A DNA stretch of 64,000 nucleotides from Escherichia phage CJY920, in sequence record PQ349265.1; one strand, 5' to 3'. The notes under the pieces are model-generated. The model made no database searches, had not been told where the DNA came from, and worked only from the letters and a program-made list of their open reading frames with translations. Each line of letters opens with the position of its first letter. Position 1 is the stretch's first letter. The translations under genes and the position numbers were made by a program. Positions 24,025 to 63,756 of the stretch are shown one piece after another.

Positions 24025-24088
24025 AAGTTATTTACAAGACCAAAGTAATATGATATTATATTCATATACAAATGGAGTGGTGTTTAAA

Positions 24089-24751
24089 ATGAAATATTTA
24101 ATATATCAAATTACTAATATCATCAATGGAAAAATTTACATCGGAGCTCATGCTACTCTTGACGAAAACGATGGTTATATGGGTTCTGGCGTAAACATCA
24201 AAAAATCCATCAAAAAATATGGTATTCATAACTTTAAAAAAGAAATTCTTTATTCTTTCTCCTCATCTGAGGAGATGTATAAAATGGAAGCTTTACTAGT
24301 CAATGAGGAATTCGTTATGAGAACTGATACTTATAATGCTGCTATTGGTGGTAGAGGAAATCCAGTTATAGTTCATTTGCAAGATCCTTCATATCGTAAT
24401 ATGTTATCAATGCGAACAAAAGAAGGAATGACTGCGGAAGTTAAACGAAAAATATCAAAGGCAAAAACAGGCGTTAAGCAATCTGATGAAACTATCGCGA
24501 AGCGAGTTAAAGGGCGCAATGAATATTATAAAACACATGTTCATCCACGAAAAAATAAACCTATATCGATTTCACATCGTAAAGCTATTTCTGAAAAACT
24601 TAGCGGTATTAAAAAATTTATTCCAATATGTATAAAGGGTGTCAAATTTGATAATCCTGATTACGCAGCGGAGCATTTTAAAGTTAGTCCTAAAACTATT
24701 CGCAATTGGATAAATGCGGATGATATGCCTGATTGCTATCGTATAAAATAG
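24089..24751 (+). CDS. segD: GIY-YIG homing endonuclease, SegD-like
   Basis: GKIYIGAH...YMGSG GIY-YIG motifs; between genes 23 and 24 where I recall T4 segD; ATG at 24089 preceded by GGAG. Confidence 0.75.
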   Translation: MKYLIYQITNIINGKIYIGAHATLDENDGYMGSGVNIKKSIKKYGIHNFKKEILYSFSSSEEMYKMEALLVNEEFVMRTDTYNAAIGGRGNPVIVHLQDPSYRNMLSMRTKEGMTAEVKRKISKAKTGVKQSDETIAKRVKGRNEYYKTHVHPRKNKPISISHRKAISEKLSGIKKFIPICIKGVKFDNPDYAAEHFKVSPKTIRNWINADDMPDCYRIK

Positions 24752-52682: not shown

Positions 52683-52976
52683 CTATTTAATGAATACTTT
52701 AGATGATGCCTGAGCCACAGTATCACCGCATGATATTGGATCAGCCATTTGAACAGCTTTCTTTCCATTGACATATACCTTAGAAGTTCTAGGTTGTGTC
52801 ACTCCGCCATGTGTTTCATATGGCTTTTTAATTTCTGTATGTTCTGTAATTGGATCACCTGCTACGAGAACAGCAATTCCTCCAGTGAATACTTTACTTT
52901 GTGTAGCATTCACAACTGTTGGAGGCCATACTTCATGGCCAGCAGTAACACACTTATCATAACTTAATCCTGACAT
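52683..52976 (-). CDS. 5.4: PAAR-repeat spike tip protein gp5.4
   Basis: 97 aa; position upstream of gene 6. Confidence 0.75.
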
Positions 52977-53554
52977 TTATAATACCCCGCTTTAACTCGC
53001 CCCTTTAAGGTACTATAATTTATATTAAGAGCTTTAGCTGCGATTTTAATACTTTTATATAAAACGCCGTTGATAATAATAGATTTAGCATTAGGGGCTA
53101 TTTTGCCATACATTGGGTTATTGGCGCCGCACATCTTCGGAGTTTTACCTCTAGGCCCTCTAGGCCCTCTTTTTCTAGACGATTTAATGCTAATTTTCAA
53201 TCTAGTTTCACGCGAATGAGATTTACCGTAAAATCCATTTTTAACACCCGCTGTGCTATGTTTTGGGAAGCCACCGATACCACCTAGTTTCATATTATAA
53301 GTTTTCTCAGATTTAACAAATTCCTCTGTGACTATTTCTGCCTCTGCGTCATACATAGCTTTTTCAGATTCAAAGAATTTTATAATATGCTTATAAAAAT
53401 TATCTATGCCATATTTTTTAATGGCATTTTTAATGGCAACGCCAGAACCCATATACCCATCATCCAAATTTGAAGTTTTATGGACACCTACATAAATTTT
53501 TCCCGTTGTTTTATTAGTTATTGAATACAAATAAAAATATTTATGGCCTCTCAT
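52964..53554 (-). CDS. GIY-YIG homing endonuclease (Seg-like) with NUMOD-like repeats and C-terminal HTH
   Basis: [17 protein letters not shown]...YMGSG; [17 protein letters not shown]; C-terminal [17 protein letters not shown]. Confidence 0.75.
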
Positions 53555-54059
53555 ACACGTAGCTTCTCAATTTATTAGCCCAACGACTCCAATTTCCAAC
53601 TATAGTTTTTGTATAATTTTTAACAAGAGTTTTTCTTATTGGAGCTGGAGGATTCGTTGGTTCAGTAGTATCAGAAGATGACCTAGAATTACTGCCAGAA
53701 CCTCCAGATTCACTTTGTTCTTGGTAGTCATATATTAATGTTACTTCGTAAGTGAATGTCTTCTGGAGGTTTTGAGGAGCTTTCCATAGATATAACTGAG
53801 TATTAGAATCAGTTGGAAGGTCTTCCCATGAAGCAGCAGTTTTAAATTCATTATCTAAACGATATTTCAACGCGTCATTTCCAAATCCAAACACAGATTC
53901 ATACGTTCCATATAAACGATTTTCTTCTACTAAAACCCCAGGAGTTTCTTCGTAACTAGTTATATTTATAGATACTAACGTTTCACCTGTTTCTAATTGA
54001 GCGGTAAAGGTGACGTCGATAGAAGAACCTTCCATGGATTCTCCTAAATCAGCGCTCAT
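53541..54059 (-). CDS. hypothetical protein (5.1-like position), 172 aa from first ATG
   Basis: Track start is TTG; first ATG at 54059. Confidence 0.5.
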   Translation of the reverse strand: MSADLGESMEGSSIDVTFTAQLETGETLVSINITSYEETPGVLVEENRLYGTYESVFGFGNDALKYRLDNEFKTAASWEDLPTDSNTQLYLWKAPQNLQKTFTYEVTLIYDYQEQSESGGSGSNSRSSSDTTEPTNPPAPIRKTLVKNYTKTIVGNWSRWANKLRSYVYERP

Positions 54060-54069
54060 TGGAAGTATA

Positions 54070-54936
54070 TTAGCCAATTGTTGAATTCTCTAATGATGTA
54101 AATTTATAATCACATTTTTTCAACGCTTTTAAAATTGCGTTATAACTTACATCCGGGAGGTCGTGTTCAATTGCTTTTTCTCTAAACCATTTGTATTTCT
54201 GTGGATGTGGTTTTCCCAAATCCTCCCAAAGTTTTTTGACTTTTTCTATACTAATCCAAGGTTCAACTGATCTTAGTTTTTTATTTCTAGCATCTAATCT
54301 CGATTTTCTTATCAAAGGATCATTCCATGATTGTTTCGTTCCTTCTATTTTTCCTGGATGATTGATTAATTTGTTTCTATATTCATCGGATTTCCATAAA
54401 GATTTAACGGTATTAGAAATACGAATTTTTAATGTTGGATCATTTTCAAAAGCAGTTTTCATCGCATTACTCATTTTCTTTCGATATTCTGGTGATGCGC
54501 ATCTTTCTTTGTTTATTTTAGATATTTTCTCTGAAAATTCTTTAGTTGACGTTGATTTAGCTAATGCCTTCAATTGAGCTTTCCTATATTCAGGATTAGA
54601 CCACATTCTCTTCAAATCTTCGGATGAAAAACCATCACCGCCGGATTTTATATTGGTACATAGAATGTCAGATGATTTATATTTCGAAATCCAATACCTT
54701 TCTCTTAAATTAAGAATTTCATAAGTAGAAACAAATTCAATTATTTCAAAATCTATTTTATAACCAGGTTTATTGCGTATCTTTTTAATATAATCACCGG
54801 AACCTATATACTTGTCATTTTCTAAATCAAAATATCTAGATTCATGTTTACCAATATAAACACGTACTAATCCTTTTGGATTAGTAACGGTTGTTTTATA
54901 TATGTATCTAAATTGAACAGTGTTAGATTTTTTCAT
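54070..54936 (-). CDS. GIY-YIG-type homing endonuclease with repeated W..PEYR NUMOD3-like motifs (288 aa)
   Basis: RVYIGKHES...YIGSGDYI; repeats MWSNPEYRKAQ, CASPEYRKKM, WKSDEYRNKL; AGAGGTG RBS. Confidence 0.65.
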   Translation of the reverse strand: MKKSNTVQFRYIYKTTVTNPKGLVRVYIGKHESRYFDLENDKYIGSGDYIKKIRNKPGYKIDFEIIEFVSTYEILNLRERYWISKYKSSDILCTNIKSGGDGFSSEDLKRMWSNPEYRKAQLKALAKSTSTKEFSEKISKINKERCASPEYRKKMSNAMKTAFENDPTLKIRISNTVKSLWKSDEYRNKLINHPGKIEGTKQSWNDPLIRKSRLDARNKKLRSVEPWISIEKVKKLWEDLGKPHPQKYKWFREKAIEHDLPDVSYNAILKALKKCDYKFTSLENSTIG

Positions 54937-54951
54937 AATTCACCTCTGAAT

Positions 54952-54959
54952 TATTTATA
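54952..54959 (-). promoter_or_regulatory. late promoter TATAAATA (minus strand) overlapping gene 5 stop, upstream of the GIY-YIG gene
   Basis: Plus-strand tatttata 16 nt from the endonuclease ATG. Confidence 0.45.
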
Positions 54960-56685
54960 AACCTACGTCTATACGGCTACCATCAATTGTGTATTGACCA
55001 GATGAAATAGAACTCATAGATGCCATTTTTTCTGTCCAATCGCCACCAACGTCCCAGTCAACTGTCCCAGCAACTTTCCAAGAAAGATTTCCATTTACTG
55101 TATTAGTCTGATTTCCTTCAACTAAAGTGGTAGCATCCCCTTTAACTGTAATGTCAGCATTACCTTCAACTACAATAGTAACATTACCTTTGACTAGGAT
55201 AGTTCCATTACCTTCAACCGTCTTAGTTTCATCGCCACGTACAAATATTGTATTGCTTCCATCTATTTGGTGGAGACGATTATCCATGTTGTAATAAATT
55301 TCTGATCCACCGACGTTAGTCTTTTTATCGCCAGCTACCAAAAAATTACCATCAGCATTTGTTATATCATACAAATTATCAACAGTTTTTCTTGTTCTTC
55401 TTCCTGACGGTGATACTTCTTCATAAGTTCCAGTTGGATGAACTAATCTATATCGTTCTTGCCCAGGGGTATCATCAAATTCTTGGATATGTCCGCTTTC
55501 AGTTTCCATTGTATGCACATAAGGATATTCACCTTTATATGAAGAAACTGGTTCTTTGAATAAAATTCTCGAGTCATTTGGAATAGGAGGGTCAGCAGGG
55601 TCAGAAGATTTAGCTACAGTAGCAGCCATTGCTGACAAAGACCTAGCTGGTGTTTTAACTTCAATACCGTATGATTCCAAATTACCCGTAAGAATAATCA
55701 TGGTAACACGGGATGCACGGCCTTTTGTTTGTTGATACCACAATGAATCACGACCAGCTTTATATGCTTTTTCCCAATCTCCGGCTAACATAGCTGTTAA
55801 CATTGTGCTAAATTTAGCTACACCGCCAACACCCATCTGAAATGCCATATTTTCTAATGCCATTTGACGAGAACGATTAACTGCTTGCCAAACTGGGCCA
55901 ACTTTAGAATGTGATTTAATGTCACGTTGCATATCAGCCAAATCGCGTTCAAATAAAGTTACCGCTTCTTCCATTGTAATAGAACCTGGATTTCCGGTAA
56001 TTTCACGACCAACTTGTTTTGATAAAACTTTATTAATTTGGTTCATATCACGAACTGGCTGCTTCATGATAAGATGACCAATACCAATTGTCGGATATCC
56101 TTCTGTATCCCAATAAACTTTTAGTCTTAATCCTTCATCACGGCGAAGCATTTCAGCCATTGACATATTTGGATTATCATCAGTTGGAATTTCTGATAGC
56201 GGTCTATCATCGGGATTTATCGCAGTGTCTAGATTGCTATCTTGGATAATATTAGAAGACGAATCATATCCTACTTCTCCGCCTTGGTTTAATACGTTAG
56301 TATCATTTCCTAAACGTCTAGGATACTGTCCGGTTGGGTCAGAAAATCCTTCAAGTCTATTCGGTTTTTCGCGAACTATTCCACCATACGTGCCAAGGAC
56401 AATTCCGTTAGTTTTCCATTTGTCTAAAAAATGACCATAAACTCTAGTTCCTTCTACCGGTCCAGTAACAGAACCTCCAATTCCAGACATTGCTGCAGAA
56501 GTTATAGGTTGAATAACTGACATCCATGGTAATTTTTCAGTTGGAATACCCATTACATCACCTTGTGCTCTTTGAGGTGGATGCAAACCAACCACACGAA
56601 CACGAACACGACCTAATTTTAATGGGTCCATTCTATCTTCAACAACACCAACAAACCAGTTGAGGTTATTACTTATCATTTCCAT
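54955..56685 (-). CDS. 5: baseplate central spike / tail lysozyme gp5
   Basis: 576 aa; N-terminus MEMISNNLNWFVGVVEDRMDPLKLGRVRVRV recognised as gp5. Confidence 0.9.
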   Translation of the reverse strand: MEMISNNLNWFVGVVEDRMDPLKLGRVRVRVVGLHPPQRAQGDVMGIPTEKLPWMSVIQPITSAAMSGIGGSVTGPVEGTRVYGHFLDKWKTNGIVLGTYGGIVREKPNRLEGFSDPTGQYPRRLGNDTNVLNQGGEVGYDSSSNIIQDSNLDTAINPDDRPLSEIPTDDNPNMSMAEMLRRDEGLRLKVYWDTEGYPTIGIGHLIMKQPVRDMNQINKVLSKQVGREITGNPGSITMEEAVTLFERDLADMQRDIKSHSKVGPVWQAVNRSRQMALENMAFQMGVGGVAKFSTMLTAMLAGDWEKAYKAGRDSLWYQQTKGRASRVTMIILTGNLESYGIEVKTPARSLSAMAATVAKSSDPADPPIPNDSRILFKEPVSSYKGEYPYVHTMETESGHIQEFDDTPGQERYRLVHPTGTYEEVSPSGRRTRKTVDNLYDITNADGNFLVAGDKKTNVGGSEIYYNMDNRLHQIDGSNTIFVRGDETKTVEGNGTILVKGNVTIVVEGNADITVKGDATTLVEGNQTNTVNGNLSWKVAGTVDWDVGGDWTEKMASMSSISSGQYTIDGSRIDVGL

Positions 56686-57259
56686 AAGATTTCTCCATTA
56701 TACGTATAAGGTCGTTCATAAATGAATTGATGTCTGATTTTGCTATTATTTTTATTTGACGAAGTTTTTCATTTTCAAGAACAGCCGATTCATACGTATC
56801 GACCGCAGCAAGTGCTCCTTCGTATTGAGGATATTTTCTAGCTTTATCGCCTTTATCATACCAAACATACGGATTATCATCGTATGATATTAAATTATAA
56901 AATTTTTCACCGTTCTCATTCACATGATACACTATTTGGTCTCCACCTATGTTTTTGTATTTTTGTATAGATGCTTGATAAGCAGCTTCTTGTGAAGTAA
57001 TCCATCCATAATACGGATCATAATTATCATTACACATCAATAAAACCCAATACAACTGCGGATTTCCATATATAGCATTTGCTAATTCTTCCGGGCGTGG
57101 TGAACCTTTAATATAATAAGTACGTAAGCGATATCCCGCAAGAGCGCGTTTGAAATAGTCTTTATAGTTTCTAAAAATATCTGTCATAGGAATAGTCGGC
57201 GCGTTTTTATTCACCGTTTTGGCCGCATATTCAATCGGATCAAAAAATGTAAAGAGCAT
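56669..57259 (-). CDS. 53: baseplate wedge protein gp53
   Basis: 196 aa matching T4 gp53. Confidence 0.85.
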   Translation of the reverse strand: MLFTFFDPIEYAAKTVNKNAPTIPMTDIFRNYKDYFKRALAGYRLRTYYIKGSPRPEELANAIYGNPQLYWVLLMCNDNYDPYYGWITSQEAAYQASIQKYKNIGGDQIVYHVNENGEKFYNLISYDDNPYVWYDKGDKARKYPQYEGALAAVDTYESAVLENEKLRQIKIIAKSDINSFMNDLIRIMEKSYGNDK

Positions 57260-63148: not shown

Positions 63149-63189
63149 TATTTTGAGAACATAAATACTCTTAGAAATAGGAGATATTT

Positions 63190-63756
63190 ATGTTCCATTA
63201 CACTTATAAAATAACAAATAAAATTAATAATAAAATTTATATTGGTGTGCATTCTACCGAAAATTTAGATGATGGATATATGGGTTCTGGTAAATTATTA
63301 AAAAGAGCCCAAGATAAGTATGGTATAGAAAATTTTTCTAAAGAAATATTAGAGTATTTTGATGATAAAGAATCTATGCTTGAAGCCGAGAAAAATATTG
63401 TCACAGAAGAGTTTTTAAATAGATCAGATGTGTATAATTTAAAACTTGGCGGTGAAGGTGGATGGGACCATTTAAATATTCCTGGGATGCTAAACCGGAA
63501 GAAAGATGCTAGCTTAAAAGGAGCTAAATCGTTTAAGTCACGGTTTGAAAATGATATTTTACTTCAAGAAAAATATCGTAAAATTGGTTCAAATGTATTT
63601 AAACGTTTGTGGTCAACTCCTGAATATAGGGAAAAATTTTTAAATAATAGCAGATTTTTAAATAAGCATCATACTCCTGAAACTATTAATAAAATGAAAG
63701 AAATTCACGCTAAAATAATCACCAGAAAGGAGAAAAGAATTCCCAATTTGGTATGA
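63190..63756 (+). CDS. segB: GIY-YIG homing endonuclease, SegB-like, inside the tRNA cluster
   Basis: YTYKITN...KIYIGVH...YMGSG; located in the tRNA cluster where I recall T4 segB. Confidence 0.7.
   Translation: MFHYTYKITNKINNKIYIGVHSTENLDDGYMGSGKLLKRAQDKYGIENFSKEILEYFDDKESMLEAEKNIVTEEFLNRSDVYNLKLGGEGGWDHLNIPGMLNRKKDASLKGAKSFKSRFENDILLQEKYRKIGSNVFKRLWSTPEYREKFLNNSRFLNKHHTPETINKMKEIHAKIITRKEKRIPNLV

Follow-up and report, generated by a model that had tools for sequence, protein, structure and literature searches.

Between genes 5 and 5.4 of Escherichia phage CJY920 (PQ349265.1), two genes coding for GIY-YIG proteins lie on either side of a small ORF, which raises the question of whether such a pair belongs to the regular content of this interval, marks a site to which homing endonuclease genes are drawn, or results from separate insertions. 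The window, i.e. the whole stretch of DNA that was analysed, spans 64,000 nt, and all the features of the 5-5.4 interval described below are located on its minus strand.

Gene content of the 5-5.4 interval

The order along the minus strand is gene 5, a 288-aa ORF (54070-54936), gene 5.1, a 196-aa ORF (52964-53554) and gene 5.4, in agreement with a previous sequence-only reading that had placed two different GIY-YIG genes around a small ORF. The latter is the conserved gene 5.1 of the baseplate module (53541..54035), coding for a 164-aa protein of unknown function (PHROG 1168), the likely start of which, shared with T4, is the ATG at 54035 rather than the TTG at 54077. The downstream neighbour, gene 5.4 (52683..52976), codes for the PAAR spike tip according to its annotation and to Pfam (PAAR_motif, E=4e-10). 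As a whole, the two ORFs are homing endonuclease genes of the free-standing GIY-YIG type that were inserted separately, at the junctions 5/5.1 and 5.1/5.4. They had been described as unrelated, a view that had to be abandoned: a GIY-YIG core is common to both (BLASTP, E=1e-4) and they belong to the same PHROG (314).

Four arrangements of the interval were found among the records with at least 95% identity. T2 carries neither gene, T6 only the 288-aa gene, and T4 and ESh33 only segC, to which the 196-aa gene corresponds; synteny across T-even phages, a comparison suggested earlier, thus reveals a variable gene content. The earlier statement that T4 has at most one seg gene at this position is accurate (one, segC). 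That both genes could be normal T4 content applies to segC and not to the 288-aa gene, which is the T6ncORF142 of T6. Among 513 records, the site upstream of gene 5.1 (5/5.1) is empty in 481, occupied in 29 and reduced to a deletion scar in three, while intact segC was found in 34 records and both genes together in four, these frequencies being approximate since duplicate RefSeq/GenBank entries were counted, as were many laboratory isolates of T4. Both genes are optional insertions. One of the four two-gene records is T4_ev151, the name of which suggests an evolved or recombinant T4.

The proximity of the two genes had also suggested a recurrent hotspot, i.e. an interval to which homing endonuclease genes are attracted more strongly than to other intergenic junctions. 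In favour of this reading, two different Seg-type genes are found at two junctions 0.5 kb apart and, in another T4-like lineage, the slot 5.4/6 holds a different, 225-aa Seg-like gene, which makes three separate slots across T4-like lineages. However, Seg genes are dense everywhere, with two more Seg-like genes elsewhere in the 64-kb window, in the tRNA cluster and at 24026-24748 (four in all), and the 15 endonuclease genes of T4 are spread across its genome (PMC2988022). Each slot has a different target sequence, so that no common site is reused, and both genes are rare (~6-7% of the records), with four co-occurrences observed vs. about two expected under independent assortment. A special attraction of this interval is thus unlikely, and the clustering of Seg genes may reflect the general density of these elements beside conserved genes.

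The explanation that appears very probable from the sequence is that two independent free-standing GIY-YIG homing endonuclease genes were inserted at both junctions flanking gene 5.1, in which case recombination among Tequatroviruses would let the two elements assort independently, which would be why this phage has both. Two insertions at 5-5.4 are ordinary T-even phage biology, only their combination being uncommon; both genes are of known kinds, with no new kind of system involved, and the pair matters little beyond annotation.

An intact segC at the 5.1/5.4 junction

The 196-aa gene (52964..53554) is an intact, full-length segC with a GIY-YIG domain, a NUMOD3 motif and a C-terminal HTH, as judged from Pfam and alignment. 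It had been recognised as a compact Seg-like GIY-YIG protein ending in an HTH, and Pfam bears this out: SegE_GIY-YIG (27 bits, cut-off 25) and NUMOD3 (32.4, cut-off 20.4) pass their thresholds, and the I-TevI DNA-binding HTH (I-TevI_DNA-bd) scores 25.1, just under its cut-off of 27. The protein also matches PHROG 314 (E=2e-54); a phmmer comparison of SegC with the PDB sequences gave no match. On these sequence grounds, the gene is the orthologue of that of SegC, the T4 homing endonuclease. SegC of T4 is listed as a free-standing GIY-YIG homing endonuclease located between 5.1 and 5.4 (Shcherbakov et al. 2002, as cited in PMC2988022), and the same T4 review presents segC as the gene of an active enzyme of this type, inserted and cutting at 5.1/5.3.

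The two genes have the same slot and the same junctions, with 95.2% identity over the 126 residues of the partial T4 record and 96.6% nucleotide identity from gene 5.1 through 5.4. As in T4, the gene is promoterless and its start lies within the 3'-terminal part of 5.1, with its first five codons overlapping the end of gene 5.1 and its last 13 nt the start of gene 5.4. Concerning its allele group, which is distinct from that of T4, the protein is 100% identical to that of phage SP21535 and 95.9% identical to the Manna allele, and its N-terminus, joined to a T2/T6-type 5.1 end, is MRGHK vs. MPMQDHK in T4.

The junctions were defined by aligning this phage with T4, ESh33 and T4_ev151. Compared with the empty 5.1/5.4 junction, CCATAAATGTCAGG, in which TAA and ATG are cleanly abutted, segC corresponds to a 564-nt insertion (52975..53544) bounded by the 6-nt repeat ATAAAT (53539-53544 and 52975-52980). 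The element is a 564-nt cassette with neither a start nor a stop codon of its own, placed at the abutment of the 5.1 stop and the 5.4 start; as it sits exactly there, it splits the empty junction. This junction is given as the target region of SegC in published work (PMC2988022), where its cleavage by the T4 enzyme appears in a review table (Table 1).

The T4 reference annotation displays a 140-aa segC followed by a separate gene, '5.3', vs. a single intact gene of 196 aa with its C-terminal HTH in the present phage. The difference comes from GGGCCTAGAGGGCCTAGAGG (53148..53167 here): the T4 reference lacks one C at this spot, hence the two annotated genes, which a 1-nt deletion has made out of a single one. 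This deletion is confined to the T4 reference sequence (two records of the same T4 sequence), segC being intact in the 34 records mentioned above. The textbook annotation is corrected accordingly: what is called '5.3' in T4 codes for the C-terminal DNA-binding domain of SegC and is not a separate gene.

The 288-aa protein and its relatives

The gene at the 5/5.1 junction (54070..54936) is a T6-type, 'seg-like', free-standing GIY-YIG homing endonuclease gene, whose 288-aa product is orthologous to that of T6ncORF142 (99.3% amino acid identity). Copies in T6, ACG-C40, fPS-2, ZN18, vB_SsoM_113 and others range from 99 to 100% amino acid identity. In T6, too, the gene lies between 5 and 5.1 and gene 5 has its end recoded in the same way; nothing substantive differs otherwise, except that T6 is devoid of segC, with which the 288-aa gene co-resides here. 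No experimental characterisation of T6ncORF142 was found in the literature searched; for this gene of a classical phage, the present data point to a probable new endonuclease whose target can be predicted (the 3' end of gene 5).

The catalytic domain (residues ~9-100; 54637..54912) contains YIY11-13, YIG27-29, E79 and N95 which, together with YxGSG, are invariant in an alignment of 13 homologues down to 26% identity. The earlier assignment to the GIY-YIG type is well founded: besides these motifs, the protein matches PHROG 314 'homing endonuclease' (E=1e-25) and its profile matches the catalytic domain of I-TevI (1LN0, E=1.7e-6), with YIY11-13 and YIG27-29 aligned to the GIY/YVG motifs, and E79 and N95 to E75 and N90, E75 being the residue mutated in 1MK0. 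The alpha/beta fold with a three-stranded sheet expected of GIY-YIG proteins is also present. R35, in the column of I-TevI Arg27, is kept in close relatives, but this column is not conserved in distant homologues; in the homologue alignment, Seg-type proteins show YxGSG where I-TevI has its R27 region.

The catalytic domain is followed by a helical repeat region (residues 105-225; 54262..54624) comprising WSNPEYR, CASPEYR, WKSDEYR and WNDPLIR, modelled as helices, and by a C-terminal three-helix domain (residues 226-288; 54073..54261), probably a winged-helix/HTH DNA-binding domain. Three NUMOD3-like W..PEYR repeats had been proposed. Three copies of [WC]..[PD]EYR were indeed found, at residues 112, 146 and 181, with the degenerate WNDPLIR at 204, but Pfam detects no NUMOD3 among them: searches with the whole protein and with residues 1-112 gave neither GIY-YIG (PF01541, PF19835) nor NUMOD3 at E<=10, and the protein did not match any other Pfam model. 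Two distant NUMOD3-bearing homologues align across this stretch, and the designation 'NUMOD3-like' is plausible for the repeats from their sequence; the region is presumed to be an extended DNA-binding linker, NUMOD3-like at best. In NCBIfam, the sole match is a weak one to a group-I-intron-endonuclease model (E=0.0016). The structure model is of moderate quality (mean pLDDT 67, pTM 0.33), Foldseek found nothing with the whole model, and among 5.8 billion proteins only 13 clusters of full-length homologues were found.

Among known enzymes, the protein is 28-31% identical, over ~60% of its length, to annotated segE and segF products (RB68, VR7), and its N-terminal GIY-YIG domain shows the YxGSG signature typical of Seg proteins. 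It also has the modular architecture of SegE/SegF and I-TevI (nuclease, extended linker, small C-terminal DNA-binding domain). The genomic slot differs from that of SegE/SegF, as presumably does the target, and in comparison with these proteins and with I-TevI the linker is longer, its W..PEYR repeats are not called NUMOD3 by Pfam and no zinc finger is evident.

Insertion, loss and transfer at the 5/5.1 junction

The 288-aa gene is a ~900-nt insertion in the last codons of gene 5. With it come a synonymously recoded substitute for the gene 5 terminus, a strong ribosome-binding site and the TATAAATA box, and its ORF reads out through the old gene 5 ATTGGCTAA. In alignments, gene 5 ends with GGATCGAGGATTGACATTGGCTAA (..GSRIDIG*) in the empty allele and with the recoded GGTAGCCGTATAGACGTAGGTTTATAA (..GSRIDVGL*; 54955..54981) in this phage, i.e. 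~8 changes in ~24 nt. These changes are strictly linked to the 288-aa gene, as the recoded end is found in 29/29 occupied Tequatrovirus records and in the three scars, vs. the empty allele in 481 records, and the block may represent the recognition site of the 288-aa enzyme. An import of the recoded end from a Mosigvirus-type donor was considered and rejected: the Mosigvirus JS09, devoid of these homing endonuclease genes (HEGs), has GGATCTCGTATTGATATTGGGTAA, which resembles the empty T4 allele and not the recoded block.

As noted earlier, a late-promoter-type box, TATAAATA (54952..54959), overlaps the gene 5 stop codon (54955-54957). According to the alignment, it is not in the empty allele and belongs to the inserted cassette; its sequence makes it a putative late promoter. 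The strong ribosome-binding site reported ahead of the ORF is the Shine-Dalgarno GAGGTG (54941..54946), four bases before the ATG. The alignments put the right-hand junction of the insertion at ATTGGCTAA (54070..54078), two codons and a stop with which the 288-aa ORF terminates here and gene 5 terminates in empty alleles. A longer duplicated and decayed gene 5 terminus, covering the last 30-odd nt of the ORF, was dismissed: sharing is certain for the final ATTGGCTAA alone, the 22 preceding nt matching the gene 5 end at 12/22 positions, no more than chance would give in AT-rich DNA.

For both genes, we infer homing after the SegA-G model. During a mixed infection, the enzyme would cut close to the insertion point in a co-infecting relative whose allele is empty, and the break would be repaired from the endonuclease-bearing genome, so that the endonuclease gene and short flanks would be copied across. 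In the case of the 288-aa enzyme, the position of the recoded block, the sole indication, would place the cut in the empty allele near GGATCGAGGATTGACATTGGC; cleavage by free-standing Seg enzymes can occur a long way from the gene (PMC2988022). In the carrier, the split of the site and, in the case of the 288-aa gene, its recoding would confer protection. Intronless homing and marker exclusion are attributed to SegF/SegG (Belle et al. 2002 and Liu et al. 2003, as cited in PMC2988022), and a similar mode may apply here by analogy, in which a phage lacking the endonuclease is cut in a conserved neighbouring gene and the flanks are co-converted during repair. Unlike in SegF/SegG, the diverged block of the 288-aa gene is only ~24 nt long and lies directly at the insertion point. 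For the 288-aa enzyme, nuclease activity and cut site are predictions, as are the use of the promoter box and homing itself.

Loss of the gene occurs by repeat-mediated deletion, as shown by the three scars between 8-nt repeats. The direct repeat TTATAAAT brackets the gene (left copy at 54953..54960, right copy at 54102..54109) with its copies 851 nt apart, and their recombination yields exactly the scar of ESh36 and 215Ecol030PP. That deletion does happen would suit an ancestral two-gene arrangement, from which the common 'empty' genomes would be deletion derivatives, but this is extremely improbable. A scar retains 34 nt of the ORF as well as the recoded terminus of gene 5 and is therefore distinguishable from the empty allele, which is identical over 46 nt in 453 of its 481 records; the empty 5.1/5.4 junction is, for its part, a clean abutment. 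Moreover, both genes are absent from ~150 Mosigvirus records (junction read in JS09) and from 22 of 24 IMG/VR loci of other T4-like phages, where the order is simply 5-5.1-5.4. Two independent insertions thus remain the preferred explanation, and the natural empty, occupied and scar alleles are useful material for studies of homing-endonuclease population dynamics or of T-even marker exclusion.

One of ~154 Mosigvirus records (ZQ3) carries the 288-aa gene, with short Tequatrovirus-type flanks that, by analogy with homing, look like co-conversion tracts. Two further signs point to mobility: its dS is 0.93, vs. 1.3-2.1 for the flanking genes, and the 3' half of the gene is 93-97% identical across genera against a background of ~70%. 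With a dN/dS of 0.096, the gene is under purifying selection.

These values also bear on whether the ORF could be a decayed or domesticated relative that no longer homes, i.e. a protein binding DNA without nuclease activity or having a phage-beneficial role in the late baseplate operon. The failure of Pfam to recognise its GIY-YIG domain, an Arg27 equivalent that is not clearly conserved, a late-promoter-type box of its own inside a structural operon, and a low occupancy (29/513) with three deletion scars, as for a dispensable element that is not sweeping, would all fit such a protein. However, GIY, YIG, Glu and Asn are invariant down to 26% identity and aligned to the catalytic residues of I-TevI, a dN/dS of ~0.1 holds over a dS of ~0.9, the ORF is intact in 29/29 carrier records, and both the recoded, target-like block linked to it and its passage between genera together with foreign flanks are traces of an active homing element. 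Decay or domestication is distinctly improbable on this evidence.

From its sequence, we lean slightly towards the 288-aa gene coding for an active, unnamed Seg-family homing endonuclease that would cut the tail-lysozyme gene 5 at its highly conserved 3' end in T-even phages without the 288-aa gene. If so, a single locus would display the whole life cycle of such a homing element, from uninvaded (481 records) to invaded with a recoded, resistant flank (29) and to a resistant 8-nt-repeat deletion scar (three), together with jumps between Tequatrovirus and Mosigvirus followed by the conversion of the DNA-binding half only.

Layout of the interval and distribution of the two genes

The window covers a segment of a Tequatrovirus (T4-like) genome in which the ORF listing places the baseplate genes on the minus strand: gene 53 (56669-57259), gene 5 (54955-56685), an ORF of 288 aa (54070-54936), gene 5.1 (53541-54035), an ORF of 196 aa (52964-53554) and the PAAR gene 5.4 (52683-52976; Pfam E=4e-10), followed by genes 6 and 7 on the same strand. 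Gene 5.1 is given here with the ATG start annotated in T4 and T6, which has a GGAG ribosome-binding site; an alternative, longer ORF call reaches a TTG at 54077. The sequence-only reading had described two GIY-YIG genes around a small ORF between genes 5 and 5.4, and this observation is confirmed: its coordinates for both endonuclease ORFs are correct. Also correct are the TATAAATA box (54952-54959), which shares bases with the stop codon of gene 5, and GAGGTG as ribosome-binding site of the 288-aa ORF. As for TATAAATA, 23 copies are present in the whole window vs. 10.3 expected (0 of 100 shuffles reached 23), an excess consistent with a late-gene region; one of them lies within gene 5.1 (53963-53970, minus strand).

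A megablast search with the interval, whose nearest record is Shigella phage SP21535 (99.0% identity), matched 658 records, with an identity of at least 95% in 494, and the spread of these matches fell into four coverage classes. Site states were counted with targeted short queries, the counts being approximate since RefSeq/GenBank duplicates and many T4 isolates are included: the upstream site (gene 5/5.1 junction) is empty in 481 records (453 identical over 46 nt), occupied in 29 (recoded end of gene 5 together with the gene), and reduced to a scar, i.e. the recoded end without the gene, in 3, while intact segC is found in 34. The set of 29 occupied records coincides exactly with the set in which the gene has an amino acid identity of at least 95%. 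Both genes occur together in SP21535, LH2, Manna and T4_ev151 (four records vs. about two expected under independent assortment), and the same two-gene arrangement is present in these four public genomes. The earlier interpretation stands as far as two independent optional insertions are concerned, only one of which is present in T4; it gives way in that T4 itself has one of the genes, its segC, and T6 the other, an annotated seg-like gene.

The downstream gene and T4 segC

The 196-aa protein exceeds the Pfam thresholds of SegE_GIY-YIG and NUMOD3, stays slightly below that of the I-TevI DNA-binding HTH, and matches PHROG 314 'homing endonuclease' (E=2e-54). From 5.1 through 5.4, window and T4 align at 96.6% identity, and the T4 annotation of this slot lists 5.1, segC (423 nt, 140 aa), 5.3 (171 nt, 56 aa) and 5.4. 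In the alignment, T4 'segC' and '5.3' together correspond to the single window ORF, the split being due to one absent C in GGGCCTAGAGGG(C)CTAGAGG (T4 NC_000866, locus L005, 4590-4650), a stretch that is intact in the window (53148-53167, minus strand). Only AF158101 and NC_000866, two entries for one and the same T4 reference sequence, have the 34-mer with the deletion, and the intact 35-mer is present in 34 records, at least a dozen of them independently sequenced T4 isolates, all with one unbroken ORF of about 196 aa. Since the deletion is limited to the T4 reference, the window gene is the normal, full-length SegC, and T4 '5.3' is its C-terminal HTH domain; the missing C reflects an error in sequencing or else a mutation confined to the reference stock.

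In the T4 mobile-element review, segC is listed as an active free-standing GIY-YIG endonuclease, inserted at 5.1/5.3 and cutting there; the gene lacks its own promoter, and there is an overlap with the ORF upstream of it (PMC2988022). In genomes without segC (T2, T6, Mosigvirus ZQ3), the 5.1 stop directly adjoins the 5.4 start, giving CCATAAATGTCAGG. Exactly at this junction, the window has 564 nt bounded by the 6-nt repeat ATAAAT, and the segC ORF takes its start from the end of 5.1 and its stop from the start of 5.4. The 5.1 end joined to window segC (53541-53570, minus strand) is of the T2/T6 type (..SYVYERP*) vs. ..KYAYARP* in T4-type segC carriers, hence a SegC N-terminus MRGHK in the window and MPMQDHK in T4. 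This change of type identifies a recombination junction no more than a few bases away from the segC insertion point. The T2 gene 5.1 (T2 NC_054931, locus L006, 2077-2370) is annotated as only 97 aa, one base (GATTCT-ATACTC; alignment column about 1220) being absent from this record vs. all others aligned; either T2 can do without the gene or its record contains an error.

The upstream gene, its junctions and its deletion scars

For the 288-aa protein, a Pfam search gave no match, but PHROG 314 was again found (E=1e-25). By tblastn, 99-100% identical copies are present in T6, ACG-C40, fPS-2, ZN18, vB_SsoM_113 and others, annotated 'seg-like hypothetical protein, T6ncORF142' in T6 and 'putative Seg-like homing endonuclease, GIY-YIG family' in vB_SsoM_113, whereas genes annotated segE or segF in other T4-like phages (RB68, VR7) show 28-31% identity. 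The upstream gene is the T6-type seg-like gene, for which no characterising paper was found in the literature collection searched. Only 13 homologue clusters were retrieved from a set of 5.8 billion proteins, and YIY11-13, YIG27-29, Y43xGSG47, E79, N95 and GG99-100 are invariant in their alignment. A profile search gave a match to the I-TevI catalytic domain (1LN0, 1MK0; E=1.7e-6), with E79 and N95 aligned with I-TevI E75 and N90. The AlphaFold model is of moderate quality (mean pLDDT 67), residues 9-88 forming a beta-beta-alpha-beta-alpha unit (pLDDT ~80). Inter-domain helices carry WSNPEYR (112), CASPEYR (146), WKSDEYR (181) and WNDPLIR (204); Pfam made no NUMOD3 call in these W..PEYR-type repeats, and homologues bearing NUMOD3 align across the region. 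Of the earlier description as two unrelated endonucleases, the distinctness of the genes holds and the unrelatedness does not, the GIY-YIG core, and only this core, being common to both (BLASTP E=1e-4).

Empty alleles (T4, T2, ESh33) read ...CAATACACAATTGATGGATCGAGGATTGACATTGGCTAATATACTTCC..., with a gp5 end GSRIDIG*, and occupied ones align as ...CAATACACAATTGATGGTAGCCGTATAGACGTAGGTTTATAAATAATTCAGAGGTGAATTATG...[ORF]...AATTCAACAATTGGCTAATATACTTCC..., so that gene 5 receives a recoded terminus, GSRIDVGL*, from the cassette. This recoding amounts to about 8 changes in about 24 nt, synonymous except for Ile to Val and one extra Leu. The TATAAATA box and the ribosome-binding site are also brought by the cassette, and the 288-aa ORF closes with the two codons and the stop that once terminated gene 5. 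As all Tequatrovirus alleles are identical 5' of the recoded block, the divergence is sharply local.

The three scar records, all Tequatrovirus (ESh36, L009 2500-2601; 215Ecol030PP, L010 2500-2601; LF73P3, OZ035756), read GGTTTATAAAT joined to TTACATCATTAGAGAATTCAACAATTGGCTAA; of the 288-aa ORF they retain only the final 34 nt, and the recoded terminus of gene 5 is kept as well. In the window, two TTATAAAT copies 851 nt apart (54953-54960 and 54102-54109) bracket the gene, and the scar sequence is the exact product of recombination between them, an 851-nt deletion. The scar records the loss of the homing endonuclease gene with the recoded site kept, and such alleles should still resist cleavage. 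Standard intronless homing is established for SegC-type enzymes, and we infer that the upstream gene would move in the same way.

Probable transfer across genera and the other invaded junctions

Among about 154 Mosigvirus records, only ZQ3 (L007 3304-4167) carries the upstream gene, in the same slot. Its flanks there are short and of the Tequatrovirus type (5', ACAATTGATGG; 3', ATTGGCTAATATACTTCC), vs. ACTGTTGACGG...ATTGGGTAATATATGGCACAAATACTTCC at this site in JS09, a Mosigvirus without the gene, and look like co-converted flanks. Between window and ZQ3, the 288-aa gene has a dN/dS of 0.096 and a dS of 0.93, and genes 5, 5.1, 5.4 and 6 a dS of 1.3-2.1, these being rough values near saturation. 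The gene is mosaic: identity is about 70%, the background level, in the 5' nuclease half and 93-97% in the 3' DNA-binding half. The high similarity of the 3' half alone points to a recent exchange of that half only, and the ZQ3 gene suggests that the element crossed between genera and that only its 3' half was converted afterwards.

In an outgroup survey of 24 IMG/VR loci from diverse T4-like phages, the order 5-5.1-5.4-6 is kept throughout; the upstream gene is present in one locus, and segC at the 5.1/5.4 slot in none of the 24. One of the 24, from another lineage of T4-like phages (IMGVR_UViG_2706795394_000001, L023 4291-4968), has a different, 225-aa Seg-like GIY-YIG gene at the 5.4/6 junction. 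In its C-terminus (HPIWQSYDILFKLWKENDKPGW...FPNTAYDKMIKQFK), the product is similar to the C-terminal domain of the 288-aa protein.

Elsewhere in the window, Seg-like GIY-YIG genes are located on the plus strand at 63181-63753, in the segB slot of the tRNA cluster, flanked by tRNA-Met(cat) and tRNA-Arg(tct), and at 24026-24748, in the late-gene region on the opposite strand; the latter may, judging by the T4 map, be segD-like. This brings the Seg-type genes of the 64-kb window to four. Concerning the proposed insertion hotspot, 5/5.1, 5.1/5.4 and 5.4/6 are each occupied, and three junctions of the module have therefore been invaded in different lineages; against a special hotspot stand the two further Seg-like genes of the window and the 15 endonuclease genes spread over the T4 genome (PMC2988022).
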